From NCBI GenBank assembly GCA_034440375.1, contig JAWXBZ010000077.1:1-19243 (forward strand): a stretch of 19,243 nt of DNA, in the 5' to 3' direction. Each line of letters begins with the position of its first letter. The first letter of the stretch is position 1. The notes below the pieces were generated by a model. The model searched no databases, was not told the DNA's origin, and saw only the letters and a program-made list of their open reading frames with translations. A program made the position numbers and the translations under genes. Below are positions 1 through 19,013 of the stretch, piece by piece. The stretch is from Candidatus Eiseniibacteriota bacterium (GTDB lineage Bacteria; Eisenbacteria; RBG-16-71-46; JABDJR01; JAWXBZ01).

Positions 1-255
1 CAGCACGTCGGCCGGGAGAAGATTGCGTGCACGGTCTGCCCCCTTGCCGCTGGCGCCACCGGCCGTCAGGCCGGGGTATTCAGCCAATGGTCCGTGGCAG
101 GTGGAACAGGACGCATCCGCCGCCAGGTGTGATGTGGCCTGGTGACAGGCGAGGCAGGTTTCAGCCGTCGGACGAACCATGTCAGGCATCCGGCCGGTGG
201 CGCCAGCGGCAAGGTGGCAGACCGTGCACGCAATCTTCTCCCGGCCGACGTGCTG
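1..255. repeat. 65-bp inverted duplication (1-65 vs 191-255)
   Basis: 1-65 is the reverse complement of 191-255 with one mismatch (position 41). Confidence 0.97.
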
Positions 256-540
256 TTCGTGCGAGAACTTGAAGTTTCCCCGATCCGGGAGGGGTGGCTG
301 CCACGCCACGGGCGGCGCCGTCTGCCCGTCGTGGCAGCGGGCGCAGTCGTTGATGCTTACCCGAACCAGCTCCTCCGGGCGATCCGTTCCGATCTCCGCG
401 TGGCAGGGCGCGCAGGACGTGAAGAGGCGGGAGTGCTTCGTGTGCGGAAAGGGGGATGGTTTCGGCGAAGGGACCGCTCCGCTCGACACGACGACGGCGA
501 GGAGCAGCGCGGCCCCGATGACCCGGCGGAGGCGGCTCAT
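1..540 (-). CDS. Periplasmic multiheme cytochrome c (c3/c7-like repeats), 3'-partial; absent from the ORF track
   Basis: ATG at 540-538 overlaps the upstream TGA (ATGA). Manual translation: MSRLRRVIGAALLLAVVVSSGA (signal peptide) ...FPHTKH...CAPCH...CARCH...FSHEQH...CTVCH...CLACH...CSTCH. The frame is open to the window edge. Bases 1-65 are probably not native coding sequence. Confidence 0.92.
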   Translation of the reverse strand, partial: MSRLRRVIGAALLLAVVVSSGAVPSPKPSPFPHTKHSRLFTSCAPCHAEIGTDRPEELVRVSINDCARCHDGQTAPPVAWQPPLPDRGNFKFSHEQHVGREKIACTVCHLAAGATGRMPDMVRPTAETCLACHQATSHLAADASCSTCHGPLAEYPGLTAGGASGKGADRARNLLPADVL

Positions 541-2027
541 GATCGTGTCGCCCCACCGGCCTGGTTCGTTAACGCAATCGGATCGGAGCCGAACCTGACT
601 TTCAGCGCGAGCGTGCCGCGCCACTGGTCGTAGTCCTCGTACCCGGGACGGTTGTGGAAGGTGTGGCGGAAACGAGCGAGTTGCGCCGTCACGTCGACAG
701 CGCCGGCGCCATGCCGTCCGACGAATCCGACACCATGGGTGGTTCCCTCACCGAACCGAAACTCGGTGAATTGCTCGGTTCCCAATGCGTGAAGCCCGAA
801 TGCGGTGCGCGGTCCGAACGACCGATCCAGCGCCAGGTCGAACTGCCCCCGGTAGGCACCAAAGCCGTGGTCGACACCGGCCGTGGCGCTCGCCGACCAG
901 CCACCCTGGTGAAACCCGCCACCCAGGTGGCTGCGGAAGGCATCTCCCTCGATCGGTGCGAGGCCGATGCCGGTTTCAGTATCCCGGTAATCGCGGTAGG
1001 CGGCGGTGGCGTCGAACGTGAGTACCGCGGAAGCCCGGTATGACCCGGACAGCCGGAGCTGGTCGAATCCGACCGGGGTGAACGCGCCCCAGATCGTCCA
1101 GAGTTCAAAGAACGGGCTCGAGTGGCGAGCCTCTATGGCCAGGTCGAGCCCGGGCGTGATCGATCGACCGAGCAGGAGCCTCAGATCGTTGATGACAAGC
1201 GAAGCGACGTCGAGATCTCCCGAAAATTCGGCACGGGATCGCCCGGCCTGCCAGCCGGCATCGAGTGCCATTCGTTCGCTGTACAGCGAGGCGCGGTCGG
1301 TTCGTATTTCGCGCTGGTACAAGAGACTTGTCGACAACGTAGAGGTCGGGCGTACCCGTCCCTCGAAACCGATCAGCACGGCTCCCAGTTCGTTGGCGAT
1401 GTTGTCCGCCTCGGCCAGAAGGGAGCCGGAATAGGGGGCGTCGAGACCGCGCCCAAGGCTTCGTCCACCGAACGCCGTGAGCCGCAGCGTCGAAGGACCC
1501 TTCCAGAGAATACTGCCGCCATCAAAGTGGATCGCGCCGAGACCGCCGTGATGATCCTGTCGCCCGGCTCGCAGTCGAAAGTCGTCGCGATCGAAATCCA
1601 CGGAGAGATCGAGGACGGCCAGTTCCTGGTCACTCCGCGGCCACAAGTCGTCGCTTCCGAATCGGCCTCGCAGATGGGTTCGTGCCTGCACCCCCCGCCA
1701 CCCAGGCCATGCGGTCAGATTCAGATCCTGGGTCATCGGGGAGGCCGTCTGCAGAGTCCCCGAGCGGTATCGATAGCAGTAGCCGCCGGGCACACAGGTC
1801 ACCAGCGAGCCGTCGGGAAGGCGTCGGGTGATCCCGTCTCCGGGCACCTCGGATTCGGGAAAACTGTCTCGCTCCACCGTTCGAAAATCGATGGCCGAAG
1901 CGCCCACGCGGAATTCCCCGCGAATTCCCTGTGCGGCCGCCGGCAGGCAACTGGCGATGAGGAGGATACCGGCCGTCAGGGCTGGACAGATCGACAGGCC
2001 CGGCAAAGTGCCGCGCGAAAACCTCAT
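537..2027 (-). CDS. Putative outer-membrane beta-barrel (porin component of a porin-cytochrome cluster), 496 aa
   Basis: Start reassigned to ATG 2027 (ATGA overlap with the upstream stop at 2024-2026). Signal peptide ends AAA|QG. Many amphipathic beta-strands (FRLRAGRQ, FDGGSILW, LRLTAFGG, WRGTLALKVRF). Lies between cytochrome genes. Confidence 0.8.
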   Translation of the reverse strand: MRFSRGTLPGLSICPALTAGILLIASCLPAAAQGIRGEFRVGASAIDFRTVERDSFPESEVPGDGITRRLPDGSLVTCVPGGYCYRYRSGTLQTASPMTQDLNLTAWPGWRGVQARTHLRGRFGSDDLWPRSDQELAVLDLSVDFDRDDFRLRAGRQDHHGGLGAIHFDGGSILWKGPSTLRLTAFGGRSLGRGLDAPYSGSLLAEADNIANELGAVLIGFEGRVRPTSTLSTSLLYQREIRTDRASLYSERMALDAGWQAGRSRAEFSGDLDVASLVINDLRLLLGRSITPGLDLAIEARHSSPFFELWTIWGAFTPVGFDQLRLSGSYRASAVLTFDATAAYRDYRDTETGIGLAPIEGDAFRSHLGGGFHQGGWSASATAGVDHGFGAYRGQFDLALDRSFGPRTAFGLHALGTEQFTEFRFGEGTTHGVGFVGRHGAGAVDVTAQLARFRHTFHNRPGYEDYDQWRGTLALKVRFGSDPIALTNQAGGATRS

Positions 2028-3022
2028 GAGCCGCCACCCGTGTGTCCAAGTGCAACCAGGTGACACGACGCGCACGCCTTGCCGGGTTGATGATCAAACA
2101 GTTCCGTGTGACAGGAGAGACAGAGTTCGCGGGTGTAGCGCGTCGACTCGATGCCGTTGTCGGTGTGGCATCCCGAGCCGGCACAACCGGTGTCATGAAC
2201 CTTCAGGGAGTGAACGCCGGCGGGAGGCGCGGCGTGACAGGTGCGGCAGGACGCCTCCGGGCGGTCATGCTTTTGGTGACACCCGGCGCAGTCGGCGCGC
2301 ACGCCACCCTCGATGGGGGTGATATGACAGGTTTCACACGCAACGCCGGTGTGTCGGGCGTGATCGAATTCCATCGGGCGCTCACGGGGTGGCGTCCCTG
2401 CGCTCAGCCGCATCAACACGGTTTCGATCCGCTGGCCGCTGATTTCCGTGGCTCCGTGGCAGGCGCCGCAGGCGGCGGCGGGCGGCGGCCCGTGGTGGCA
2501 GGCCTGGCATTGCCGATTGGCGGTTATGACCAGCGAACCGTGTCGCTCGGTGCTCTGGTGACAGACGGCGCATTCGAGATCGGCATGGCGGTCATGGACG
2601 AACGAGGCCATGGCGGCGGTGGCCGCCGGGGTCGCGGCATTCCCGTGACAGGAACGGCAATCGGCACCGACGGCCTTCCAGGCATGCGGTACATGGCAGT
2701 TCGTGCAGTCTTTGAAAATTTCGGGATCGACCCGGTGGAAGATCGTCTCGGTCCAGGCTTTCGGATGACATCCGGAGGTGGTGCAGGTGGGCAACCACCC
2801 GTCGCGTCCAGGCCTTGGATTGGCTTCATTGGCATCGTGACAGATGTCGCAGGAGGGGCCGTGGCGGTCGACGATTCCGGTAGCCGAAGCGACCGCTGTC
2901 GGGGAAACAGTCGGGCCCGGGGGAGAATCACCCGGGCCCGGTCGTTCACAACCCCATGCCAACCATGCCGCGCCACCCGTCACGATCCAGAAAAGCGGTC
3001 CGAAATGGCGGGTGCGGGTCAC
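2024..3022 (-). CDS. Multiheme cytochrome c lipoprotein, 11 CxxCH + 2 CxxxxCH
   Basis: Lipobox-like LAWG-C. Motifs: CDICH, CTTSGCH, CTNCH, CRSCH, CAVCH, CQACH, CGACH, CETCH, CAGCH, CRTCH, CAGSGCH, CLSCH, CASCH. c3-type FxHxxH motifs (FVHDRH, FDHARH). The GTG start is uncertain. Confidence 0.93.
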   Translation of the reverse strand: MTRTRHFGPLFWIVTGGAAWLAWGCERPGPGDSPPGPTVSPTAVASATGIVDRHGPSCDICHDANEANPRPGRDGWLPTCTTSGCHPKAWTETIFHRVDPEIFKDCTNCHVPHAWKAVGADCRSCHGNAATPAATAAMASFVHDRHADLECAVCHQSTERHGSLVITANRQCQACHHGPPPAAACGACHGATEISGQRIETVLMRLSAGTPPRERPMEFDHARHTGVACETCHITPIEGGVRADCAGCHQKHDRPEASCRTCHAAPPAGVHSLKVHDTGCAGSGCHTDNGIESTRYTRELCLSCHTELFDHQPGKACASCHLVALGHTGGGS

Positions 3023-3033
3023 ATCATATCGGA

Positions 3034-4467
3034 TTACTTGAACATCCGTTCCCGTGAAACCGAGGGTGCCGCGGTGACGCCGTAGGCGGCTTCGAGCGCA
3101 TCAATGCTGGCCACCAGCAATTGCTCGGTCAGGAACGGATTGTGCGTGGGCGAGCCCTTCTTGTCGGCCAGCTGCGCGTTGAACCACGCCCCGTCGGCCA
3201 CGGTGAAGCGTCCGTCGGTGGTATTGAACTCACCGGCGGGAACAAGCGTGAGCAGTCGCTCGACCTCTTCGACCAGATTTGCCATCCGGTTGTTCGCGGT
3301 CAGGAAGGCCGATCGAGCGGCCACGGGTGATCCGTGGCAGCCACTCTGGGCGCATGAATTGAACGTCCGCTCCTCGATCGGGCACTCATCCTCAGGCAAT
3401 GGCTTGCCGGTTTCATCAAGACAGGGTGCCGCCTTGAAAAGATGCCCGGTGGCACTGAAGACAAAACCGCCGGTTTCCGGATTGGTCACTTCGAATGACG
3501 TCACGTGGCATGACGCACAGAGCCGCGGATTGCCGGTGGTGCCGTGAGTGGCCACGATTCGATCCACTTCGGGTTCGAATCCGGGGGGCCACCATCCGGC
3601 CGTGCCGAGAAGCAGCGGCCCTTCAGGGGCGTGCGGGCCGCGGAGTGACGCGGACTCGGTTTCGGGATTCGAACGCCGGTTGTGGCACTTCATGCAGAGA
3701 TTGAGGTCCTCGTCGGGCACATCGATCGGAAAGCGGAGTTGCGCCGGGTTGTTTTTGGCGTGCGGATCGTGGCAGACGACACAGGTGATGCCGACATGCT
3801 CACTGCGAGGGGCATTCTTCTCGATGTAGTTGGACGTGACGCCCCAGGCCGCGAGTGCCCCCTGGCCGGAGTGGCAGCTCAGGCAGCTCGTCGACGTGCT
3901 GGATTTGGCGATCGAGTTGAACGTGGCATGCCGCGAGACCGCCCACTCATCCGCGAAGGCATGATGCGCGCCGGTATGACACTCCGCACAATTCTTGGTC
4001 GGCAGGCCTGACTCGAGAATGGCGATGGAGGCTTGCGGCTGGCTCGCGTCCGGATTGGTCACATGGTTGAGGCCGGGGCCGTGACAGCTTTCGCATTGGA
4101 CATTGTGATACCGGTCGTCTGCGACTCCGGCATAGCCGACGGCGCCCGTGGTCGGGTTGCCATTGGGACCCACCGAGTGGCAATTCTGGCAGAAAGCCTG
4201 GGAACCACCCGACGCTTGAAGCGTGGCCCAGGCATCTGCATGACCCGTGTTTTCCCACTTGGCCTGCTGACCGACATGGCAATTGCCGCACACGGTGAGA
4301 TTGGCATCCTGATCATCGATCCCAAGAAAGCCCTGAGCCGCAGCTGGGGGGTCATCGTAGAGCGGGCGTTCGACGAAAATGGTCTTCTCGTCCGTACATG
4401 CGGCGAGACTCAGGGCGAGGAAAAAAATCGTGCCCTGAAGGGACCAATTAATGGCATTCGTTCTCAT
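3034..4467 (-). CDS. Multiheme cytochrome c lipoprotein, 8 CxxCH + 1 CxxxxCH (c554-like N-terminus, helical C-terminus)
   Basis: Lipobox LAA-C. Motifs: CGNCH, CQNCH, CESCHGPG, CAECH, CLSCH, CVVCHDPH, CMKCH, CASCH, CAQSGCH. C-terminal GSPTHNP. G-rich SD (AGGGGGG) upstream. Confidence 0.95.
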   Translation of the reverse strand: MRTNAINWSLQGTIFFLALSLAACTDEKTIFVERPLYDDPPAAAQGFLGIDDQDANLTVCGNCHVGQQAKWENTGHADAWATLQASGGSQAFCQNCHSVGPNGNPTTGAVGYAGVADDRYHNVQCESCHGPGLNHVTNPDASQPQASIAILESGLPTKNCAECHTGAHHAFADEWAVSRHATFNSIAKSSTSTSCLSCHSGQGALAAWGVTSNYIEKNAPRSEHVGITCVVCHDPHAKNNPAQLRFPIDVPDEDLNLCMKCHNRRSNPETESASLRGPHAPEGPLLLGTAGWWPPGFEPEVDRIVATHGTTGNPRLCASCHVTSFEVTNPETGGFVFSATGHLFKAAPCLDETGKPLPEDECPIEERTFNSCAQSGCHGSPVAARSAFLTANNRMANLVEEVERLLTLVPAGEFNTTDGRFTVADGAWFNAQLADKKGSPTHNPFLTEQLLVASIDALEAAYGVTAAPSVSRERMFK

Positions 4468-4655
4468 GGACCCCCCTGCATGGCAGGTGGAAGGTCATAA
4501 GTCTGCACCGCTGACATCTCAATTAATAAGGCACACGGCCTCCGGGCACAAGGGCGGATGCCATCTATTCAGCAATTACCGCCACCAACACTGATAATTG
4601 TCATGATTTGGATATGGAATCGCCGGGTGGGCTGTTCGGAAAGGACCCGGAACCC

Positions 4656-4667
4656 TAGAATCCCCTG
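4656..4667 (+). promoter_or_regulatory. Putative -10 box of a leaderless promoter for the maturation operon
   Basis: TAGAAT at 4656-4661, 6 nt before ATG 4668; no SD at the normal spacing. Confidence 0.55.
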
Positions 4668-5792
4668 ATGAATCAAGGATTGACTCTGCGCCGCCGATCC
4701 GTCGGGGACGTTTCGCTCGGAGCCCTGATCGTGCTGGCGTTGTCCGCAGCCGGCGCAGGCGTCGGATGCCGTGAAAGCAAGATTCGCGCCTACGAGGTGC
4801 CAGCCGAGCGCGTCGCCCCGCCCCCCGTCATGTCACCGCCGCCGATGTCGCCCGGCGGGGCCGAAGTGCCGCACTGGCAACTTCCCGCGGATTGGCAGGA
4901 AGTGCCCGGCACCGGGATGCGCTTCGCCACGCTCATCGTCGAGGCCGGCAGTCCGCCGCTCGAGATCCGCGTGACGCCGTTGACGCTGGCCGCGGGCGAT
5001 CTGCTCGACAATGTGAATCGCTGGCGCGAGCAGATCGCACTCGAGCCGGTGTCCGCCATGGATGTGGGTAAGCTGGTCAAGAGCATCGATGCCGGCGGGC
5101 GAACGATTGATTACGTGAACCTGACCGGCCCGGCGACGGGCGATGCGCCCGCCAGGCAGATCCTGGCGGCCATACTTCCGGGATCGCAGCAACTCTGGTT
5201 CTTCCTCATGTTCGATGATGCAACGCGCGTCTCCCGCCACGCCGCCGAGTTCGAGGCTTTCATCAGCACGGTGCATCTGGCGGGATCTCCGGAAGGAAGC
5301 GGCGGCCATCCGGACATTTCGGACGGCCACGGTTCCGCCCCGGTCGCCCCGGGCGACGAGGGCGCGGAATCGATGATCTGGAGCCTTCCCGGCGGATGGA
5401 CGGTCGATCCCAGACCTCGCGACATGCGGGTGGCCACGATCAAGCTGTCGGACGGAGGGAGTGAGGTGGCCATCACTCGCTTCGCCGGGCCCGGCGGCGA
5501 TTTGATGGCCAACATCAACCGTTGGCGAAATCAACTCGGACTGGCTCCGGTGGCTGATCCAACCGATCAACCCTCCGAGTCGATCGAGCTGGCCGGATTT
5601 CCAGCCCGTCTCTTCGACATCTCCGAAGGTGGCAGCGACCCAGCGCGAAAGCGGACGCTGGTCGTTGGCCTTCCGCGCCCCGGCATCAGCTGGTTCATCA
5701 AGATGACCGGCCCCCACGACCTTCTGGATCGGGAGGAACCGGCGTTCCGGCAATTCCTCGGGTCGGTGCGAATGACCGGCGGGGCTCGATGA
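4668..5792 (+). CDS. Uncharacterised exported (lipo)protein with two tandem homologous domains
   Basis: Hydrophobic N-terminus ending GVG-C. Two copies of W-x-LP-x-x-W...MRxAT...GDLxxNxNRWRxQ...WF...F-x-x-F, joined by a Gly/His-containing linker. ATGA-coupled to resB. Confidence 0.88.
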   Translation: MNQGLTLRRRSVGDVSLGALIVLALSAAGAGVGCRESKIRAYEVPAERVAPPPVMSPPPMSPGGAEVPHWQLPADWQEVPGTGMRFATLIVEAGSPPLEIRVTPLTLAAGDLLDNVNRWREQIALEPVSAMDVGKLVKSIDAGGRTIDYVNLTGPATGDAPARQILAAILPGSQQLWFFLMFDDATRVSRHAAEFEAFISTVHLAGSPEGSGGHPDISDGHGSAPVAPGDEGAESMIWSLPGGWTVDPRPRDMRVATIKLSDGGSEVAITRFAGPGGDLMANINRWRNQLGLAPVADPTDQPSESIELAGFPARLFDISEGGSDPARKRTLVVGLPRPGISWFIKMTGPHDLLDREEPAFRQFLGSVRMTGGAR

Positions 5793-6985
5793 GTCCATTG
5801 CGGCGTCTCTTCAGAACGCTCTCATCCCTCCAGCTGACGGTCGTGTTGCTGGCCCTGTCGATCTTCCTCATCTTCGCGGGCACCTGGGCCCAGATCGATC
5901 TGGGGATCTGGACCGTTCTCTCGAAATATTTCCGATCGTATTTCGTCATGATCCCCATCCAGATATTTCTGCCGCGCGAGTGGAACGTGCCGGGTGCCAT
6001 TCCGTACCCGGGCGGATTCACGCTGGGTGGTCTGTTGCTGCTGAATCTGTTGACCGCACATGCCGTGCGCTTTCGCTGGCAGTGGAAGCGGGCCGGAATC
6101 ATCCTCGTTCACTTCGGCATCGTTCTCCTCATCACGGGCGAATTCCTGACGGCACTCCTGGCGCGGGAAAACAACATGACGATCATGGAGGGGGAGACGG
6201 CCAATTTCGCCGAGGATATCCGCGAAGTGGAACTGGCGATCACTGACCGATCCGACCCGGGCGTCGACAAGGTCGTGGTCGTGCCGCATTCCCGGCTTTC
6301 CCGTCGCGGCCTGATCCGCGATCAAGAGCTTCCGTTCGATATCCGCGTCGACGAATACCACCAGAATGCCGATCTTCTGGAGGGCTCCGAGGGCGGGCAG
6401 GGGCCCCTCGTGGCGGATCGTGGCTTCGCGATGAGCCGGGGAATCACGGTCCGGCATCGTCCGCCGGCCAGCGGCACCGATCGGGATCGGAGCGATTTCC
6501 CGACGGCCTATGTCACCCTCGAGAAGGACGGTGCCCGGCTTGGCACCTGGCTCGTCTCGCTCTACTTCTCCCTCATGGCGGAACCGGTGATCCAGCCGGT
6601 CGTGGTAGATGGCCGATCGTTCGACATCAGCCTCCGCTTCAAACGCGAGTACAAGTCGTATGAGATGTCGCTCATCGATTTTCGCCATGACAAGTATCCC
6701 GGAACCGAAACGCCGATGAACTATTCCAGCGATGTCCGCCTCGTCGACCGGGTGCGGGGCGAAGATCGCCGGGTGCGGATCTTCATGAACAACCCCCTGC
6801 GCTATCGCGGCGAAACGTTCTACCAGTCCAGCTTCCTCCAGGGCGATACCGGCACCGTGCTGCAGGTGGTGAAAAACCCGGGCTGGCTGCTCCCTTATGC
6901 CGCCTGTGTGATCGGGGCACTGGGGCTCATCATCCACTTCGGAATCCGGCTGCTCGGGTTCCTGAATCGGGGACGTAACCGATGA
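5789..6985 (+). CDS. resB: Cytochrome c biogenesis protein ResB/CcsB (System II)
   Basis: Three N-terminal TM helices with conserved His (ILVHFG), large soluble domain, MNNPLRYRGETFYQSSF motif, C-terminal TM helix; coupled to ccsA. Confidence 0.9.
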   Translation: MSPLRRLFRTLSSLQLTVVLLALSIFLIFAGTWAQIDLGIWTVLSKYFRSYFVMIPIQIFLPREWNVPGAIPYPGGFTLGGLLLLNLLTAHAVRFRWQWKRAGIILVHFGIVLLITGEFLTALLARENNMTIMEGETANFAEDIREVELAITDRSDPGVDKVVVVPHSRLSRRGLIRDQELPFDIRVDEYHQNADLLEGSEGGQGPLVADRGFAMSRGITVRHRPPASGTDRDRSDFPTAYVTLEKDGARLGTWLVSLYFSLMAEPVIQPVVVDGRSFDISLRFKREYKSYEMSLIDFRHDKYPGTETPMNYSSDVRLVDRVRGEDRRVRIFMNNPLRYRGETFYQSSFLQGDTGTVLQVVKNPGWLLPYAACVIGALGLIIHFGIRLLGFLNRGRNR

Positions 6986-8733
6986 CGAACCGACGCCCGC
7001 TGATCGACTGGCTGCCCTGGCTGCTCCTCGGATCATGTCTTCTCTACGTTGCCTCGAATCTCCGTCCGCACAGGGACGGTGAGTTTCAGTTGAGCGCTTT
7101 CGGCCGACTTCCGGTACAGGACCAGGGAAGGGTGAAGCCGCTGGATACGCTGGCCAGGACGAGCCTCATGGTCATTTCGAACCGCCAGACGTTCTGGCTG
7201 TCAGGTGAGAGCGGCACCTCGGATCGGGAGCGGGTGAACGGTCACCGGAAGACCCGGGCGGTGCAATGGCTGCTCGATGTCATCGCACGGCCAAAGCAGG
7301 CACGCGCCTATGAAATCGTTCGGATCGACCACCCGGAAGTTCTCTCTCTGATCAAGGCACCGGACAAGCGCAAGTACTTTTCGATCGATGAGATCATGGC
7401 GCAGGAGGATGAACTCGTCCGGCAGTTCGACCTGGCGAGGGGGATCGACAAGAACGACTGGACTCCGTTCCAACGGCAGTTGATGAACCTGCACAACAAG
7501 CTGGCCCTCTATTTCACGCTCGAAGATGCCGAACGCCTCCGCTTCATACCGGCCCCGAAGGGCGTCCAGGACTGGACGACAATACGGAGTGCCGGCGTGG
7601 GCAACAGCTCCGGCGGTCAATCGATGGCGTACGCGCGCTCGCTGACCGAGTCGCTCATCGCCTGGCGGGATCAGGATTTCGCCGCGTTCAACGCGGCCGT
7701 CAAGGCGGCTTCCGGGCTCACCGACGAGGTGGCTTCGAAGACGCGGGCCCGCCTGAATCATGAATGGGATTTCAACCAGGCGGCCCCCTTCATGATGGCG
7801 ATGGCCCTCTATGTCATCGTGTTCGTCCTGGCCGCCCTTTCCTGGCTGAGGAATGAGGGGCCGCTGGCCCGTTCGGCGCTCTGGATCCTGACCCTCGCCC
7901 TGGTCGTCCACACCGTCGGGCTGATCTCACGGATCTATATCCAGGGACGCCCCCCCGTCACCAACCTCTATTCCTCGGCAATTTTCGTCGGGTGGGGTGG
8001 GGTGGTGCTGGGGCTCATCCTGGAGCGCCTCTATCGGAACGGCGTCGGGTCGGTGACCGCCTCGGGCCTGGGCTTCCTGACCTTGCTCGTGGCGCACAAT
8101 CTGGCGATGGACGGCGACACGATGACCATGATGCAGGCCGTTCTCGATACGAACTTCTGGCTGGCCACCCATGTCGTCGTCATCACGCTCGGCTATGGCG
8201 CCACGTTTCTGGCCGGATTCCTGTCGATCGTCTACATCATGCGCGGCGTCTTCACCCGCGGGCTCGACCAGGACACCGCCGCGAGCCTGTCGCGGATGAT
8301 CTATGGCATCATCGCCTTCGCCACGCTGTTCAGCTTCGTCGGCACGATCCTGGGCGGCATCTGGGCCGATCAATCCTGGGGCCGCTTCTGGGGCTGGGAT
8401 CCCAAGGAAAACGGGGCGCTCCTGATCGTCCTCTGGAACGCCCTGGTCCTGCACGCCCGCTGGGGGGGGCTCGTGCGCCACCGCGGAATCGCGGTCCTTG
8501 GCGTGGCCGGAAACATCGTCACGAGCTGGTCCTGGTTCGGCACCAACATGCTCGGCGTTGGCCTGCACGCCTATGGCTTCATCGAATCGGCCCTTTTCTG
8601 GATGTTCGTCTTCGTGGGTTCCCAGCTGGCCATCATCGGCATCGGCCTGATCCCGCTTGACCGCTGGCGGAGCTCGCTGGCGCGTCCAACAGCCACGGTC
8701 GTCCCGCCGACCGTTTCCACCATCGAAACGTGA
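6982..8733 (+). CDS. ccsA: Cytochrome c biogenesis protein CcsA/ResC (System II) with N-terminal extracytoplasmic domain
   Basis: WWD motif GGIWADQSWGRFWGWDPKE; conserved His in WLATHV and GLHAYG; multiple TM helices; GRVKPLDT motif in the extra N-terminal domain. Confidence 0.96.
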   Translation: MTNRRPLIDWLPWLLLGSCLLYVASNLRPHRDGEFQLSAFGRLPVQDQGRVKPLDTLARTSLMVISNRQTFWLSGESGTSDRERVNGHRKTRAVQWLLDVIARPKQARAYEIVRIDHPEVLSLIKAPDKRKYFSIDEIMAQEDELVRQFDLARGIDKNDWTPFQRQLMNLHNKLALYFTLEDAERLRFIPAPKGVQDWTTIRSAGVGNSSGGQSMAYARSLTESLIAWRDQDFAAFNAAVKAASGLTDEVASKTRARLNHEWDFNQAAPFMMAMALYVIVFVLAALSWLRNEGPLARSALWILTLALVVHTVGLISRIYIQGRPPVTNLYSSAIFVGWGGVVLGLILERLYRNGVGSVTASGLGFLTLLVAHNLAMDGDTMTMMQAVLDTNFWLATHVVVITLGYGATFLAGFLSIVYIMRGVFTRGLDQDTAASLSRMIYGIIAFATLFSFVGTILGGIWADQSWGRFWGWDPKENGALLIVLWNALVLHARWGGLVRHRGIAVLGVAGNIVTSWSWFGTNMLGVGLHAYGFIESALFWMFVFVGSQLAIIGIGLIPLDRWRSSLARPTATVVPPTVSTIET

Positions 8734-8765: not shown

Positions 8766-11048
8766 CTACGCCATCGGCAGTTCGCGATCCAGCCAGGCCT
8801 CCCAATCACTGCTGCCGGGAGGGCGTGCGGGAAGTGCACCCAGCCACAAGCGGGCCTTCTGCACCAGGAATTGCCATTCGGCTTCCCGATCCGGATCCCG
8901 GAGGAGATGCCGCAGGGCCACCAGCGTGGCCACGATGCGACCGCCCAGGTCCTTGTCCACGGCGAGCTGTTTGAGAAGGGGCTGGAGCGCCTTCTTCTTC
9001 AGTGACACGGCCGTGAGGAACGCCGAATCCAACTTCCAGGATCCGTCCGCCAACTGCAACAGGAGGAGTTGAGTTTCTGGATCGGGTCGAACCTTATCTG
9101 CCCACGGCCTGGATCGGTGAGCAGACTCCACGTCGCAAAGGGTCAGTCCGGCCCGGCCGACAAGAGGTGAGCGAGCCGGACTGGCGGATGTGTAGTTTCT
9201 CTCGAACAACATGCCGTCCGTTGGCGACCCCCACCCGCGCGTGAGCGCGACCGGAATATGCCGAAACTCCGGCTGGATATCCGGATTCGCATCGGGGATC
9301 ACTTCCACCCCGATGAAGCTCGTTTCCGAGGAGAGAACGCCGTAGCGGCGGCTCAACGCGACGATGCGGGCGACGGCAAGGCGATCCTGCCGCGCAACTC
9401 GTCGCGATCGGGACCGGTCAGTTTGGGCGACTTGTTCCTCCTCGATCTCGCGGATGGCGGCCCGGGCCAGAAGCGCCGGCAAGGCCTCCTCATCGATGGG
9501 ATCCCCGGTGTCGAATTCCTGGGTCCACGAGAGCGGTCCGTTCGGGCCGACGGCATGCAGAGTGACGCGGACATGTCGATTGCGAGCCAGTCGGGCATAG
9601 AGCCGTACCACGGCGTCTTCCGACAGCGGGGGCAGTCGGCCCGGCGTCACGAGGTCGGGCGTCGCGCCCTCCCAGGTGAGCCGAACGTCGGTGAATGTCG
9701 GGCCGGTGATGCGGCCGAACTGACGCATCACTTTTTGTTCGATGCGTTCTCCTGGAAAGACGAACTCGGCGCCCCCGCCGCCGCTGCGCGCGATGATGCG
9801 GGCCAGATGTTCGTTGACACCCCGGCCGATGCCGAAGGTAAAGACCGCGGTTTCGGGATGACTGGCGACGAGCGTCGCGACCTCGTCCTCATTGCTGACC
9901 TGACCATCGGTGACGAGCACGACGCGGCGCCGGGCGAAGGACTTGTGACCCAGAATGAATTGAAGTGGCGCCAGCATTTCGGTGCCACCCAGATCGGCAT
10001 GAATTTCGGAAACGTGTCCGGTGGCGGCTTCCAGGGATTTCTGGCTGTATGGAACGCTCGTACCGAACAGGGATTCGAACGTGCTGCCGAAGCCGATGAT
10101 GTTGAAGCAATCCCCCTCGATCAGCGAACGAAGACAGATCTGGAGCGTGCGCCGCGCCTGTTCGATGCTCTCTCCCTCCATGGATCCGGACCGGTCGATG
10201 AGAAATACGATCTCGCAGGGCTGACGGGGGAACGCATCGAACGCCGGTCGAAACTCAACTCCTGCGATGCACTCCGTTTCTCCGTCACGAACGACCAGGG
10301 CGGACGACTCGGGAGCCGCCTCGAAGCGAATGTTCAAAACGACGTCCTGGTCGAGTGTTGTCTGCCGGTCGCAGAGCGTCACCACCGCGCCACCGCCCGC
10401 GAACTCGGTCCGCACCGGGTGCGACACGCACTCGACTTCACGAACCGGCGAGTTGCCACGGATGGCCACACGAAGGCGCAAGCCGTAGGGCACGGCATTC
10501 CGGAGCGGTGGACAGATGTCGCTCAGCTCGGAGGGATCGAGAGTGGCCGCCTGCTCCGCCGGTACGTACCGCGGCGATATCGTGGTCGGGATCAGGAGGC
10601 GCAGACTGTCGCCATGGCGCTCCAGCTCCGACGCCGTGCCGATAGTGACCACGGCCTCCTCGCCCGGGAGCAGATTTCCGAGCGACAGCGTGAGGATATT
10701 GGGCCGATCCTGGTCGAGAAGGATGGCCCGATTGCCGGCGGCCAGCGCGTCGTCATAGGCCGCCAGGGCCAGATCCTTCTCGTCGATTGCCGCGCGTATC
10801 AGGCGATCACCGATGCGAACCTCGAGTCGGTGCATGGCCGACAGGTCGCCGACGGGAAAACTGTAGAGGGCCTCGATCGGCACACGCTCGCCGTTTCGGT
10901 AGAACTGACGAAGGGTAAGGTTCGACACGGTGTCATGCACCGATACGTCGATTTCGACGGCAAGCAGGGGGACGCGAGCTCCGTCCCGTGTTGTCATCAC
11001 CCCGCTCGCCAGGTCCGCGGAGTCATTCAGTTGTTGTTGGATTGGCAT
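8766..11048 (-). CDS. VIT + vWA domain protein with VWA5A/PARP4-like C-terminal domain, 760 aa
   Basis: Start reassigned to ATG 11048 (SD GAGGTG at 11060-11055). VIT domain (QFYRN...IEALYSFP...GNLLPGE). MIDAS residues DRSGS / GGTE / TDG. C-terminal LQLADGSW...ATLVAL...EWQFLVQKARLWL. Confidence 0.93.
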   Translation of the reverse strand: MPIQQQLNDSADLASGVMTTRDGARVPLLAVEIDVSVHDTVSNLTLRQFYRNGERVPIEALYSFPVGDLSAMHRLEVRIGDRLIRAAIDEKDLALAAYDDALAAGNRAILLDQDRPNILTLSLGNLLPGEEAVVTIGTASELERHGDSLRLLIPTTISPRYVPAEQAATLDPSELSDICPPLRNAVPYGLRLRVAIRGNSPVREVECVSHPVRTEFAGGGAVVTLCDRQTTLDQDVVLNIRFEAAPESSALVVRDGETECIAGVEFRPAFDAFPRQPCEIVFLIDRSGSMEGESIEQARRTLQICLRSLIEGDCFNIIGFGSTFESLFGTSVPYSQKSLEAATGHVSEIHADLGGTEMLAPLQFILGHKSFARRRVVLVTDGQVSNEDEVATLVASHPETAVFTFGIGRGVNEHLARIIARSGGGGAEFVFPGERIEQKVMRQFGRITGPTFTDVRLTWEGATPDLVTPGRLPPLSEDAVVRLYARLARNRHVRVTLHAVGPNGPLSWTQEFDTGDPIDEEALPALLARAAIREIEEEQVAQTDRSRSRRVARQDRLAVARIVALSRRYGVLSSETSFIGVEVIPDANPDIQPEFRHIPVALTRGWGSPTDGMLFERNYTSASPARSPLVGRAGLTLCDVESAHRSRPWADKVRPDPETQLLLLQLADGSWKLDSAFLTAVSLKKKALQPLLKQLAVDKDLGGRIVATLVALRHLLRDPDREAEWQFLVQKARLWLGALPARPPGSSDWEAWLDRELPMA

Positions 11049-11061
11049 GTTGATCACCTCG

Positions 11062-11472
11062 TTAACCGCCGGAGTCGGGATTCCGATTTCCGGGCTCAAG
11101 AATGTCGCGGCAACGCCGCGTCATGTCACGCAACTGTCGGTCGGTGGGGACCGGGGTACCCGGCCCAACTTCCAGGTGAAGGCCGTCGCCCAGTTTCAAC
11201 CGGGTGACGAGTTCGCGTTCGATCGGTTCGTCCGGTACCGGCTCGCATGCGCGTCCGGTCAGGGCCGTCGTGGCCAGGTCGAGGGAAAGGCCGGTCCGTT
11301 GCAGATCCCGCAATTTCAGAATTCGATCGAGATGTTCCTGGCCGTAGTGCCGTCCGGGGCCACGTCCGTCGGGAGGCGGAATCAGCCCGCGTTGAACGTA
11401 ATAACGGACGGTGCGGCCGCTGATTCCTGCCACCTGTGCCAGCTCGGTAATGGAAAAGCGACGCGGTGTCAT
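11062..11472 (-). CDS. MerR-family HTH transcriptional regulator
   Basis: FSITELAQVAGISGRTVRYYVQRGLIPPP...YGQEHLDRILKLRDLQRTGLSL is a MerR winged HTH, followed by a short C-terminal domain. Confidence 0.93.
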   Translation of the reverse strand: MTPRRFSITELAQVAGISGRTVRYYVQRGLIPPPDGRGPGRHYGQEHLDRILKLRDLQRTGLSLDLATTALTGRACEPVPDEPIERELVTRLKLGDGLHLEVGPGTPVPTDRQLRDMTRRCRDILEPGNRNPDSGG

Positions 11473-14960: not shown

Positions 14961-17292
14961 TCAGTAGGAGAACGGAGAAGAAATGTAGACCGCTGTCGGG
15001 AGTAGCCCGGCCCGGCGAAATGTCAGCGATCCCAATTCATCCAGGGACAGGATGGCATCCGGCACATGGGCTCCGGACAGGTTTCCTGACCAGAGCGAGC
15101 CAAGCTCGATACCATTCCTGGTAACGGTGCCAATGGCACCCCAAAACTCGGCCGGTATCGGCCCGTTGCTGCCGCAATTGCCACCGGATGCTCCGCCAAT
15201 TCTGGCATTGATTGCATAGTGATCATTGCCAAGTGACAGGGCGTTTCGGTAGTACTGGTACCATGTCACCGAGTGACTGCCGCCCGGCACGTAGCAATTT
15301 TAGGCGAACTGCAAATCGATGTCTTCGTCAACGGAGACTTCGGCGCCATTCAACATCGTTGCCCCTCCGACGACTTCATGCCTGCCGAAGCCATAGTGAG
15401 CAGCCAGGTACGACTCCCCGTTGTGGGTTACGCCGAATCGACGAATGGGCCCGCTGTCAATCGTGCCGCGAACCGTCCGGTTGAAGGCCACCCCGAGTGG
15501 CAGCCTGGAACTGGTCTGAAGTATCCGGAGATCGAGTGACGTCCCCACCTGGAGTCGGCACCAGAGCGTGCCGACGAAATCGATATGACTCAGTGCACCG
15601 GGGTCAGCGGTGACACCGGGATAGCCGGTGGCCTCCGTCACCGTCAGTTCGATCGGCTCCCCGGACCCGATCACGCGGAGAGTGGTCATCCCGTCGCCGG
15701 CTTCGTAGACATATCCTGCTTCGGTCCGCCGGAGGATTCCGGTCGTGACGATCTGATTGCCATTCAGGCGATAAGCCACGTTCAGGACGGAGAGTGCGGC
15801 CCCGACGGCCTGATCACTGATCTGCACGAGTTGATATCCGACCTGTCCCAGCTGCAGGAGCCGATCGGCTTCGGCGCTCGACAGGAGGGAGACAACCGTC
15901 GCTCGCGCCGTGGCCGATGCCGTCGGGTCTTCGACGCTCGTGGCGATAATGTGCACCTGACGGGTGTCGTTGAGGCCGTACGGGCTGGTAAAGAATCCAC
16001 TGGACGTCACGTCTCCGCCGCCGCCAACGGACCAGATGACGCCGGGGTCGTCGGCGTGTCGAACCGTGGCGGTGAATTGATATGTCTCGCCCGAGTTGAG
16101 GGTGATCGTTGGCGGGGAGATGGTCACCCGGACTTTCAGACGCAAGCCAACTGTGGCCGTGGCGCTGATGGACGGATCGGCCATGCTCGTGGCGCGGATG
16201 GTGGCCTGGGGAGGATCGGGGAGAATGGCGGGAGCCCGGTATACGCCATTGCCGGTGATGGTACCGAACGGGAAGCCTCCGTCCACGCTCCAGACAACAC
16301 GGTGGTCGGCACTGTTCGTCACGACGGCGGTGAATGTCTCGGATGCGTCCAGTCGCAGGGAAGCCGTGGCTGGCGAGATGCCGACGAGGACTGGTGGCGG
16401 CGGTGGTGGCGGTGGCGGCTCGGTTGCCAGTCGAATCTCGACCACGCTCGATTTGTTGGGATGCGCCTCCAGCGTGGCCCGAATTCGCGCGCGCGGTGGG
16501 TCGGGGAGCGTCGCCGGGGCCGAATAGAGACCCGTCGTTGTGACCGTGCCATGCTCCAGCCCCTCCTCGACGCTCCAGAGAACCGCCGAGTCGTCGGTGC
16601 CACCGACTCGAACGTGGAGTTGAGCCGTGTGTTCCAGGTACAGCAGGGTGGGGGTGCCGAGGATCCGAATCGCGATTCCCCGGATCAGGATTTCGGCCGT
16701 CGAGGCCTTCGATGGGTCGGACAGGCTGTGAGCCAGGACTCGAACAATCGGTGGATTCGGCAACTCATCGGGAGCCTTGTAAAGCCCTGCTTCAGAGATG
16801 GTGCCCCATGCGCCCGATTCGCCGCCGGGAACAAGCAGTCTCCACGAAACGCCGCCGGTAGCTCCCCCGAGAAGTCGCGCCTCGAACTGGTACACGGCGT
16901 TCGGTTCCGCCACGACATTGCGCGGGGACACGAGTACGGCCGTCCCGCGTCCCGGGTTATCGCATACACAGGATGATGGTGGTGTCGACCGCACCGCGGG
17001 CGTTCGATACCACCAGACGCGCGGCATGGGGGCCGTTGAGGACTGAGGTTGTGTTCCAGGCAAGGGGCGACGCCGGCCCGGAAACGACCGGGAGGTCGTC
17101 CACCCACAGGGCGTACTCGTCGCCATCCGCGGCGTCGATGGAAAGCGGGACGACACCGGAGAGAATGCTCCAGCTGTCCGGGGAAACCGATCGAATGACG
17201 GGGGCCGAAGTCGGACCCGGCAGAGACGGTTTGTCGTCTCCGCAACCGAGGAGGAGCGCGATCGATAGAAGGTAAGCCACGCGTCGCCGCAT
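14961..17292 (-). pseudogene. Surface lipoprotein with tandem Ig-like repeats (about 776 aa), disrupted by one frameshift and one in-frame stop
   Basis: ATG 17292 gives MRRRVAYLLSIALLLG-C (lipobox) plus an Ig-like domain. Frameshift near 16960-16975 leads into four W-S-V..G-T-I/V..G-x-Y-x-A-P repeats with a 9-Pro linker (16392-16418). TAA at 15302-15300 is in frame with ORF 14961..15290. Confidence 0.82.
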
Positions 17293-17304
17293 GACCTGAG
17301 TATA
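17293..17304 (-). promoter_or_regulatory. Putative -10 box, leaderless start
   Basis: TATACT (17304-17299) lies 6 nt before ATG 17292; no clear SD or -35. Confidence 0.5.
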
Positions 17305-17364
17305 TGACAACCGGCGTCCATCGGCCCGGTGGAGCAAGGGCTGGCTGGCATCCGCCTGGGCGGC

Positions 17365-17584
17365 CAGAAAGAGGGATTCCAGCGATTCCCCCCCTTGGCC
17401 GCTCCAATCACCGACGTTGAGATCGCGGACGATCCGGCCGCGAACCAGGATCAGGGCGCGGTCGCACAGGGTTTCGGCCGACCGAGGAGCGCGGCGGCAA
17501 TCGACACCTTGCGCCGCATTCCGTGCGAACATTCGATCAGGAGGGCGTTCCGTTTGTCGGTCGAAGGAGGCCGGTGAACGTGCG
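17365..17584 (-). pseudogene. ABC transporter ATP-binding protein remnant (three fragments in three frames)
   Basis: RTFTGLLRPT (17584-17555, post-Walker A); DKRNALLIECSHGMRRKVSIAAALLGRP (17558-17475, signature region); AETLCDRALILVRGRIV...SLESLFL (17478-17365, C-terminus). Confidence 0.78.
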
Positions 17585-17716: not shown

Positions 17717-17844
17717 GTCTGCCCACCAACAAATTGGCGCGGTACGATGACCAGAGACCGCAGATTACACGGGCGGGGTACATTGTCCTGGTGTGCGAGC
17801 GTGGGTGTTTACGAGACCGGTAGAATAGAAGTTCGGTGGCAGAC
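17717..17844 (+). other. Upstream integron recombination point (attI-like site or degenerate attC)
   Basis: TAGAATAGAAG|TTCGGTGGCAGAC with GTT at 17831-17833. No L-box dyad upstream. Imperfect direct repeats and an R''-like GTCTGCCCACCAAC at 17717-17730. Confidence 0.45.
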
Positions 17845-19013
17845 GAGAATGCGAGCCGGAGCGCGAGACCTACAATGACATCACCCCTACACATCACCCC
17901 GTTCTCGATCCAGATCGAGGCAGAGGTGCTGTCTGATCTCCGAACGCGGATCCGCCGCACGCGCTGGCCTGATCAGGCGCCAGGTGTGGCGTGGGAGCAG
18001 GGGGCTGACCTTGAGTACCTCAAATCGTTGCTTGCGTATTGGGCCGACGAGTTCGACTGGCTCGCACAAGAGCGCGAGCTGAACGCGGCCAATCAGTTCC
18101 GCGCCGATCTCGACGGCGTCCACATCCACTTCGTTCATGAGCGGACGAGACGCGGGCAGGGCATTCCGCTGATCCTGACGCACGGATGGCCTAGCACGTT
18201 CGCCGAGTTGCTTCCGCTCGTACCATTCCTGACCGACCCAGACGCCCACGGCATCGACGGTCCCTCCTTTGACGTCGTCATTCCTTCCCTGCCTGGTTAC
18301 GGGTTCTCCGATCGGCCCGCTCAGGTGGGTGTGAACTATCAGCACGTGGCCGGGCTGTGGCACCGCCTGATGCGCGGCCACTGTCCGCGGCGGAGAAAAC
18401 CTATCGCGAGCGCAATGAGGCATTCTGGCAAGAGGAATATGGTTACAAGGCCATCCAATCCACGAAACCTCAGACGCTCGGATACGGGCTGAACGACTCG
18501 CCGGCTGGGCTCGCCGCCTGGATTCTGGAAAAGTGGCGCGCCTGGGCCGACTCCCGCGGCAATCTCGATGAGCACTTCTCCCGTGACTTCTTGTTAACCA
18601 CGGTCACGCTCTATTGGGTCACGCAGACGATCACATCCTCGATGCGGGACTACTTCGACAACGACAACAGGCGGTTCCGAGTCACGCTCGGACCACAGGA
18701 CTTCGTCAATGTGCCAACCGGCGTCGCTGTCTTCGCCAGTAATTTCGTCGATGAGGGTCCACCTCCCCGTGATTGGGCCGAACGCCTGTACAACGTGCGC
18801 CGGTGGACCCCGATGCCGCGCGGCGGGCACTTTGCCGCGGTCGAGGAGCCCGAGTTGCTGGCCCGCGATATCGCGGCGTTCTTTGCCGGCATGTGAGCCT
18901 GCGCGCAGGTCCCGGTGGAGTCGTTTCTTGAGATCAGGGCCGATGTCTGCCACCGAACAACGTGTTGCAGCCGACATGCTCCGCTGCGCTTCGCGCGCGG
19001 CTGAACACAACCG
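17832..19013 (+). mobile_element. Integron gene cassette carrying an epoxide hydrolase gene
   Basis: Bounded by G|TT at 17831 and G|TT at 19013. GTTCGGTGGCAGAC (17831-17844) is the exact reverse complement of GTCTGCCACCGAAC (18945-18958), as expected for the two halves of one cassette's attC. Confidence 0.85.
17875..18896 (+). pseudogene. Epoxide hydrolase (microsomal/EHN type) with an internal deletion and frameshift
   Basis: EHN domain (TRWP...YWADEFDW), HGWP and PSLPGYGFS in the first frame; DSPAGLAAWILEKW and GGHFAAVEEP in the second. The GGDxG nucleophile segment is missing at the junction near 18372-18380. Confidence 0.92.

Follow-up and report, generated by a model that had tools for sequence, protein, structure and literature searches.

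The DNA analysed here, hereafter the window, is the 19,243-nucleotide stretch that spans positions 1 to 19,243 of contig JAWXBZ010000077.1 from a Candidatus Eiseniibacteriota bacterium (assembly GCA_034440375.1). Its first 8,733 nucleotides hold four minus-strand genes, encoding three multiheme cytochromes and a predicted outer-membrane beta-barrel protein, back to back with three plus-strand genes that include a ResB-CcsA pair for cytochrome c maturation (Table 1). An earlier sequence-only reading of this region had proposed a self-contained module for extracellular electron transfer (EET), made of a porin-cytochrome conduit and its own divergent heme-attachment machinery. Genes were delimited by listing and translating open reading frames (ORFs), with a crude gene call based on the GC content of third codon positions (GC3), and heme-binding sites were located with a motif script. 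The seven genes are found at the positions first claimed, and their arrangement was reproduced: on the minus strand, 11 nt separate the nonaheme and 13-heme genes and the two following junctions are ATGA overlaps (2024-2027 and 537-540), both junctions of the plus-strand genes are ATGA overlaps as well, and the two groups diverge from a 200-bp gap. In this gap no promoter (scanned with the sigma-70 consensus only), terminator or inverted repeat was found. The CXXCH motif is absent from all 12 other ORFs retained in the window by the GC3-based call.

Table 1. Cytochrome, barrel and maturation genes of the window and the region between them (aa, amino acids).
Feature	Positions	Strand	Size	Characteristics
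Nonaheme lipoprotein, OmhA/OcwA type	3034-4467	-	477 aa	canonical lipobox ALSLAAC; 8 CXXCH and 1 CX4CH; candidate terminal oxidoreductase
13-heme cytochrome, probable lipoprotein	2024-3022	-	332 aa	GTG start; WLAWGC (non-canonical lipobox); 11 CXXCH and 2 CX4CH
Outer-membrane beta-barrel, family without a name	537-2027	-	496 aa	heme motifs absent; signal peptide; about 24 strands (AlphaFold2 model)
Periplasmic multiheme cytochrome, 5' part, cut at the window edge	1-540	-	180 codons	signal peptide; 5 CXXCH
Divergent intergenic region	4468-4667		exactly 200 bp	54.5% GC
Probable lipoprotein, family unassigned	4668-5792	+	374 aa	...GVGC; unmatched in Pfam and NCBIfam
ResB-like System II cytochrome c biogenesis protein	5789-6985	+	398 aa	PF05140, E 1.5e-17
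Long-form CcsA, System II heme handling/attachment	6982-8733	+	583 aa	PF01578, E 2.3e-23

The beta-barrel and the cytochrome encoded next to it

The 537-2027 product matches no Pfam family at E <= 0.01 (search made with the ORF 537-2075) and no NCBIfam family; PF11854, the MtrB/PioB model against which the sequence-only reading had wanted it checked, is among those left unmatched, and a profile of 43 sequences gives no match to PDB sequences at E <= 10. The claim that the protein is a trans-membrane barrel is supported by an AlphaFold2 model, computed from a 43-sequence alignment (predicted local distance difference test score, pLDDT, 84; predicted template-modelling score, pTM, 0.77), which is all-beta with 23 long DSSP strands. 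If one strand of 25 residues is in fact a hairpin, the model would probably have the normal topology of 24 strands with periplasmic turns of 2-5 residues and long external loops. The matches listed by Foldseek are outer-membrane barrels only, including MOMP, Occ porins, the 24-strand ushers FimD and PapC, and MtrB (6r2q_B), the last at rank 36 with E 3.4e-7 and TMq 0.40, a generic fold match only. As had also been claimed, the barrel is shorter than MtrB: its 496 residues and about 24 strands compare with ~650-700 residues and 26-28 strands in MtrB/PioB, the solved MtrB structure having 26. For MtrB/MtoB, 28 trans-membrane motifs have been predicted (PMC4245776). The most conserved stretch of the barrel, PFFELWTIWGAFSPVG (residues 305-320), is modelled as a low-confidence loop and is likely to contact a partner or to lie within the lumen. 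Together with two invariant Cys at residues 78 and 84, placed within a small hairpin, this Trp-rich, almost invariant loop (FFELWTIWGAFSPVG) shows the highest conservation in the family.

A word-indexed search recovered 168 homologs of the barrel, every named one of which is a 'hypothetical' protein from metagenome-assembled genomes (MAGs) of Gemmatimonadota, Longimicrobiales or Eisenbacteria; its look-alikes in the Atlas are unnamed Gemmatimonadota clusters only. The closest named relatives of the window proteins come from 'Candidatus Eisenbacteria' MAGs (65% for the barrel, 75% for CcsA and 55-59% for the nonaheme protein), and the wider barrel family is found mainly in Gemmatimonadota. Gene neighbourhoods were compared in the best 80 of 342 stretches encoding a barrel relative (one genome per GTDB species, all 80 from MAGs, numbered L001 to L080) by tblastn of the window proteins, with counts that take the available flank into account; the upstream flank of the barrel measures 8 kb or more in 43 loci. 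The synteny that the sequence-only reading had suggested looking for was observed, the cluster being kept in MAGs of both Gemmatimonadota and Eisenbacteria. Of the 80 loci, 77 have 700 nt or more downstream of the barrel gene, and all 77 carry a homolog of the 1-540 cytochrome directly downstream of it; a strict rule gives 74, the cytochrome genes of L015, L019 and L025 overlapping the barrel end by 3-6 nt. In the other three loci the sequence stops at the barrel. On the upstream side, a multiheme ORF ends at the barrel in 58 of the 66 loci with at least 2.5 kb of sequence. One locus, L051, stems from a record titled Akkermansiaceae; its gene layout is that of the Gemmatimonadota locus L050, with near-identical coordinates, and its Verrucomicrobiota label may be a binning error, not the mark of a transfer.

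The periplasmic cytochrome had been credited with five or more hemes. Five CXXCH motifs lie in the part encoded in the window, and the number can now be refined to 16 for most full-length relatives (~460-520 aa). The gene after the barrel was delimited in 68 of the 80 loci: 50 of these genes encode 16 CXXCH (~460-580 aa), 11 encode 12 (~315-327 aa) and seven are cut, mis-delimited or have 9-14. In an alignment of 34 sequences of the 16-heme protein, all 16 motifs are invariant together with 16 further His residues, a number that allows bis-His ligation of all 16 hemes, the usual state of hemes devoted purely to electron transfer. CX4CH motifs were seen in the two lipoproteins only, never in this cytochrome.

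The 1-540 fragment matches Pfam Cytochrome_C7 (E 7.9e-14) and TIGR04257, a c7-type triheme 'nanowire' domain (42.4 bits for a cut-off of 40). An exhaustive profile search with the periplasmic cytochrome retrieved 4077 representatives at E <= 0.001, 287 of them at E <= 1e-30. Against PDB sequences, the profile matched HmcA with E 1e-12, the best stretch covering profile positions 38-157, and MtrA (6r2q_A) with E 2e-4. HmcA of Desulfovibrio (1H29, 1GWS, 2E84, 1Z1N) likewise carries 16 hemes in ~500 residues; it differs in that the similarity stays at the level of c3/c7 domains, with a Foldseek E of 3.3 and another gene context. Membership of the HmcA family was rejected, NF045713 being unmatched by the full-length proteins of L012 and L006 at E <= 0.001 and the PDB profile match being partial. 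The statement that the window encodes no MtrA-type decaheme holds: on TIGR03508 (DmsE/MtrA, cut-off 192.2 bits) the 1-540 fragment scores 23.3 and the nonaheme protein 38.4, two full-length relatives are unmatched, and most full-length relatives have 16 hemes. With TIGR03507 (OmcA/MtrC, cut-off 209.3 bits), the periplasmic fragment scores 15.5 and the two lipoproteins are unmatched.

The lipoprotein cytochromes and the proteins encoded around them

Compared with PDB sequences (phmmer), the nonaheme lipoprotein matches 6QVM with E 1.1e-12 over six consecutive heme motifs and 6I5B with E 6.1e-7 over part of these motifs. These entries are OmhA of Carboxydothermus ferrireducens (11 hemes) and OcwA of Thermincola potens (9 hemes), presented as 'cell-surface' members of the NrfA/c554/MccA superfamily (PMC9250108); OcwA is described as a cell-surface terminal reductase of soluble and insoluble substrates (PMC6703420). 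Judging by these alignments, the nonaheme protein is homologous to the OmhA/OcwA heme cores. It has nine heme sites, as does OcwA, in which two hemes are five-coordinate, with the distal His pairs H281/H282 and H380/H381 (PMC9250108). Its H168/H169 aligns with an HH pair of both OmhA and OcwA (H168 is 97% and H169 59% conserved; this numbering comes from sequence alignment only), and at the second distal-pair site one His, H279, is kept in place of two. It further differs from OmhA and OcwA in being a diderm lipoprotein encoded beside a barrel, and about 200 of its 477 residues align with them. In 37 homologs taken from the related loci, the Cys and His of the heme motifs are 100% conserved and nine additional His reach at least 97%; all 37 have the lipobox Cys, which is followed by a T-D-E/T motif with Asp at +3 in 33 of them. 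This motif resembles the acidic surface-export signal of Bacteroidota lipoproteins. Homologs of this gene stand upstream of the barrel on the same strand in 41 of 66 loci when 2.5 kb or more of upstream sequence is required, and in 32 of 43 when 8 kb or more is required, directly abutting the barrel in L062 and L077. The family comprises at least 2779 relatives (the 120 listed are 51-81% identical), and by these sequence comparisons the nonaheme protein is the best-conserved part of the cluster.

Many relatives have membrane-anchored cytochromes of ~640 aa, and the 13-heme protein is the counterpart of their C-terminal half. An alignment of 12 sequences, eight of them long forms, contains 13 conserved His outside the heme motifs; a Cys following a signal-peptide-like stretch is present only in the window protein, L001 and L002, and the L001 homolog has a canonical lipobox, IAGC. 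Across the related loci, the gene upstream of the barrel takes three forms. The first, to which the window belongs, consists of short cytochromes of ~230-390 aa with 8-12 plus 1-2 hemes, some with a lipobox. The second is ~640 aa long, with 17-18 CXXCH and 2-3 CX4CH motifs, and a sampled example (L012) starts with an NrfH/NapC-like region. The third, of ~950 aa and 19 CXXCH, is in a sampled example (L025) fused to a cytochrome b561/FdnI-like membrane domain, which is the design described for CbcL (PMC6295460). The 12-heme cytochromes found after the barrel (L050, L051, L055, L058-L061, L063, L067, L079 and L080) are paired with this ~950-aa 19-heme upstream protein, except in L058; L079 belongs to 'Ca. 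Benthicola marisminoris'.

The loci nearest to the window, L001, L002 and L006, combine the short upstream form with a separate NapC/NirT-region protein that carries six CXXCH and one CX3CH. In L001 its gene comes immediately after that of the 16-heme cytochrome, and the translation has three trans-membrane helices, with the CX3CH just past the third. A NapC/NirT region together with six CXXCH, one CX3CH and three trans-membrane helices (the helices as observed in L001) is the signature given for ImcH (PMC6295460). The ImcH-like proteins of the relatives measure ~500-585 aa as ORFs; here, assignment to the ImcH or CbcL type goes by motif pattern and Pfam domains only, and no ImcH or CbcL model was matched in the libraries searched (Pfam and NCBIfam). 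Inner-membrane cytochromes of quinol-dehydrogenase type (ImcH-, NrfH- or CbcL-like) are common neighbours of the barrel and its cytochrome in the related loci. The window has no such gene, but by analogy with L001 an ImcH-like one probably lies immediately past its left edge.

In L002, an Eisenbacteria locus, the region directly upstream of the homologous cluster (L002:416-6674) holds an apparent second conduit, with genes for an ImcH-like protein, a c554-like tetraheme cytochrome, a DmsE/MtrA-like decaheme cytochrome (165 bits for a cut-off of 192), a 519-aa protein and a hexaheme lipoprotein. The 519-aa protein has no family and is possibly another barrel.

A candidate conduit across the outer membrane

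We propose that the minus-strand genes of the window, from position 4467 to position 1, fairly probably encode the outer-membrane end of a porin-cytochrome conduit of an uncharacterised family that is widespread in Gemmatimonadota and Eisenbacteria. An inner-membrane quinol dehydrogenase, ImcH-like here, would oxidise quinol and the electrons would pass to the 16-heme, all-bis-His periplasmic cytochrome, which may be long enough to span much of the periplasm and to insert in the ~24-strand barrel, the latter insulating the heme chain through the outer membrane. Outside the cell, the OmhA/OcwA-type nonaheme lipoprotein, perhaps together with the 13-heme lipoprotein, would deliver electrons to an extracellular or poorly soluble acceptor, for which Fe(III) or Mn(IV) minerals, humics and an electrode are candidates. 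As a more tentative extension, which we regard as possible rather than probable, the same design might serve phylum-wide as an EET conduit in Gemmatimonadota and Eisenbacteria, with a 16-heme bis-His wire leading from an ImcH-, NrfH- or CbcL-type dehydrogenase through the new ~24-strand barrel to an OmhA/OcwA-type surface lipoprotein.

The porin-cytochrome architecture first proposed, with a barrel, a periplasmic cytochrome and lipoprotein cytochromes, appears to stand and is kept in related loci. It falls in the architectural class of the Geobacter-type porin-cytochrome systems (Pcc; OmaB/OmbB/OmcB, and IALB_1837-1839 of Ignavibacterium album), to which it can be likened by description (PMC4245776). 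As portrayed there, these consist of three parts, namely an outer-membrane protein resembling a porin, along with periplasmic and outer-membrane multiheme cytochromes; the porin and the periplasmic cytochrome form a constant core accompanied by a variable outer cytochrome, motifs of the atypical CX3-4CH kind are restricted to the outer cytochromes, genes for extra inner-membrane and periplasmic cytochromes are often attached, and the porin is much smaller than MtrB (PMC4245776), all of which recalls the cluster described here. Three differences are apparent. The periplasmic cytochrome has 16 hemes, whereas those of Pcc have 5-14 (the largest 400 aa with 14 hemes; PMC4245776); the barrel has about 24 modelled strands, compared with 18-22 predicted for Pcc porins (PMC4245776); and the outer cytochrome is of the OmhA/OcwA type. 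The likeness to MtrCAB of Shewanella (6R2Q) is one of concept, a heme wire in a large barrel with an outer lipoprotein cytochrome. The proposal of a separate conduit family stands in that no curated Mtr-type model is matched, with the kinship to Pcc compared by description only, and there is good inferential support for regarding the cluster as a porin-cytochrome conduit family of its own. The pair of lipoprotein cytochromes, put forward as a distinguishing mark, is indeed present (the 13-heme one being a probable lipoprotein), but its value was overstated, since ExtABCD of Geobacter also has two. Among the papers searched we found none describing the barrel family or the cluster, which is best described as a conduit of known porin-cytochrome type whose new elements are an unnamed ~24-strand barrel family, a 16-heme periplasmic cytochrome and an OmhA/OcwA-type lipoprotein.

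Several points weigh against the conduit. It is proposed from genes, alignments and models, and all 80 related loci come from MAGs, none of them from an organism shown to respire minerals. The surface exposure of both lipoproteins is putative, and the lipobox of the 13-heme protein is non-canonical. The AlphaFold2 model of the 16-heme cytochrome (75 sequences) is of medium confidence (pLDDT 77, pTM 0.59, with residues ~300-430 averaging ~46-68); its best E against PDB folds is 0.18, with no significant match, MtrA included, and a model of this quality lends no support to an MtrA-like or GSU1996-like fold, to a rod shape or to a fit in the barrel. Finally, soluble substrates too are reduced by cytochromes of the OcwA type (PMC6703420), which makes a soluble acceptor conceivable.

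In a rival reading that we consider unlikely, the cluster is a periplasmic module for a soluble acceptor: the barrel would be a substrate channel, the lipoproteins would face the periplasm and the nonaheme protein would reduce a soluble nitrogen, sulfur or selenium compound or something similar. The superfamily of the nonaheme protein also holds NrfA, ONR, HAO, MccA and OTR (PMC9250108), OcwA has been likened to reductases of soluble acceptors (PMC6703420), and H168/H169 may match the distal pocket of a five-coordinate heme; the nine conserved non-motif His, on the contrary, would let all nine hemes be six-coordinate. Many of the Foldseek matches listed for the barrel are ordinary diffusion porins, yet a diffusion channel needs neither ~24 strands nor the strict pairing with a bis-His cytochrome of 16 hemes that is observed here (77/77 loci). 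Weak, sub-threshold NCBIfam matches to ExtM/N/O/S, of the selenite/tellurite Ext operon, speak for a soluble acceptor, whereas the genes of the window cluster include no molybdopterin, FeS or other catalytic subunit detectable with Pfam or NCBIfam.

An electron-conducting barrel could also work inwards, taking up electrons from Fe(II), Mn(II), reduced sulfur minerals or a cathode as in MtoAB/PioAB. Porin-cytochrome systems run both ways and the CbcL/MtoC family is found in reducers and oxidisers alike (PMC6295460), and Cyc2-type iron-oxidation genes have been reported in MAGs of Gemmatimonadota and Eisenbacteria (PMC9769843). However, the closest testable relatives (L001, L002, L006) have an ImcH-like partner, and the only role in which the ImcH family is so far implicated is the oxidation of quinol, which corresponds to outward transfer (PMC6295460); no genes for carbon fixation or a high-potential acceptor were seen in the window. 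Electron uptake is in our view quite improbable, and because of the ImcH-type partners outward electron flow through the proposed conduit is favoured.

Gemmatimonadota are common in soils and sediments, but few of them have been cultured and little is known of how they gain energy anaerobically. The sequence-only reading had described the lineage as one not known for metal or electrode respiration. No experiment on this was found, and to that extent the statement holds; it was overstated in that FeGenie surveys already include both Gemmatimonadota and Eisenbacteria in the taxa that carry genes for iron cycling (PMC8478452) and that two ImcH and one CbcL homologs were counted in Gemmatimonadetes in 2018 (PMC6295460). 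Multiheme proteins have also been noted in Gemmatimonadota MAGs (PMC9769843). The genome of L043 is that of 'Ca. Carthagonibacter metallireducens', whose name derives from a hydrogenase-based suggestion of metal respiration, cytochromes going unmentioned in the part of the source that makes it (PMC10469786).

The set of genes for a quinol dehydrogenase, a 16-heme cytochrome, the barrel and an OmhA/OcwA-like lipoprotein offers a testable route to mineral or electrode respiration in Gemmatimonadota, with the barrel as a marker gene that has no name in Pfam or NCBIfam. If the more tentative, phylum-wide extension is right, members of a soil and sediment phylum that ranks among the most abundant and the least cultured would respire minerals, humics or electrodes, and a terminal reductase of the OmhA/OcwA type, the characterised members of which come from Gram-positive iron reducers, would here have been joined to the porin conduit of a diderm as a surface lipoprotein. 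Such a link between a diderm system and surface reductases so far characterised in Gram-positive bacteria bears on the evolution of multiheme terminal reductases.

The adjoining System II genes and other genes of the window

Across the 200-bp gap, the plus-strand operon encodes PF05140 and PF01578 proteins together, the combination expected of System II; the two genes are adjacent and translationally coupled, and fused relatives of ~990 aa exist. The Trp-rich WWD stretch of CcsA reads WGRFWGWDPKE. Two differences from the usual System II were noted. First, CcsA has an N-terminal extension of ~300 residues before PF01578, common to the listed relatives of ~550-650 aa; its TIGR03144 score is 123.8 bits, below the cut-off of 187.6. 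Second, a 374-aa lipoprotein of unassigned family precedes ResB and CcsA in the window. Its Atlas matches are 'hypothetical' clusters of ~370 aa, commonest in Verrucomicrobiota and Planctomycetota, and tandem DcrB/PsbP-like domains are a weak lead only. CcsA has at least 8000 relatives, those listed being 43-75% identical, mostly over at least 90% of the length, and named ones among the matches listed come from Eisenbacteria (up to 75%), Krumholzibacteriia, Planctomycetota (ResB-CcsA fusions of ~990 aa) and an Alphaproteobacteria MAG. By such comparisons the window CcsA is nothing private to this cluster but belongs to a common long form of the System II protein.

The operon had been interpreted as the conduit's own heme-attachment machinery. 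Were this so, the lipoprotein, ResB and CcsA would have co-evolved with the conduit, for example to serve the CX4CH sites, and the region would be a self-contained, transferable module. Wolinella has dedicated CcsA isoenzymes beside their special cytochromes, and the divergent arrangement across 200 bp and the sub-threshold TIGR03144 score of CcsA would fit a similar case here, as would a nonaheme homolog (P0395) and a CcsA homolog (P0125), 73% each, that each come from an NCBI contig of 8021 bp, possibly one and the same. A dedicated CcsA would be expected to show conserved linkage to the cytochromes it serves. However, none of the 80 related loci, 43 of which have an upstream flank of 8 kb or more, carries ResB, CcsA or the 374-aa protein within 10 kb of the barrel (tblastn), L002 and L006, Eisenbacteria loci with a full 10 kb upstream, among them; homologs bearing CX4CH occur in all those loci without a nearby lyase. 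The CcsA family is moreover very large and conserved, with standard fused CcsBA proteins in Planctomycetota, and it is in Verrucomicrobiota and Planctomycetota, not in the lineages of the barrel, that clusters resembling the 374-aa protein occur most often. A dedicated lyase therefore seems to us very improbable. Because none of the 80 loci carries these genes, we read the operon as a general System II set that adjoins the conduit: most likely, on sequence grounds, it is the maturation set of the organism, needed for all its cytochromes, and the presence of maturation genes beside cytochromes on one contig gives no warrant for a dedicated module. The claim of own heme-attachment machinery is accordingly not supported, nor is the description of the module as self-contained, its last cytochrome being cut at the window edge and the quinol dehydrogenase of the relatives falling beyond the left edge.

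Convergent with CcsA, a protein with VIT and von Willebrand A domains (777-aa ORF) is encoded on the minus strand within 8766-11472. Its start is overlapped by the ORF of a preceding regulator of the MerR family (11062-11472), and the 80 related loci have neither of the two near the barrel. Farther along, an epoxide-hydrolase-like gene on the plus strand (17836-18896) is split in two overlapping frames, the ORF 17836-18492 comprising an EHN domain and the start of an alpha/beta hydrolase fold and the ORF 18357-18896 being the apparent continuation in another frame, which points to a frameshift, a pseudogene or an assembly error. At 15300-17411 on the minus strand, an ORF of 703 aa contains repeated segments, matches Big_2 (bacterial Ig-like) weakly and probably encodes a secreted or surface protein.

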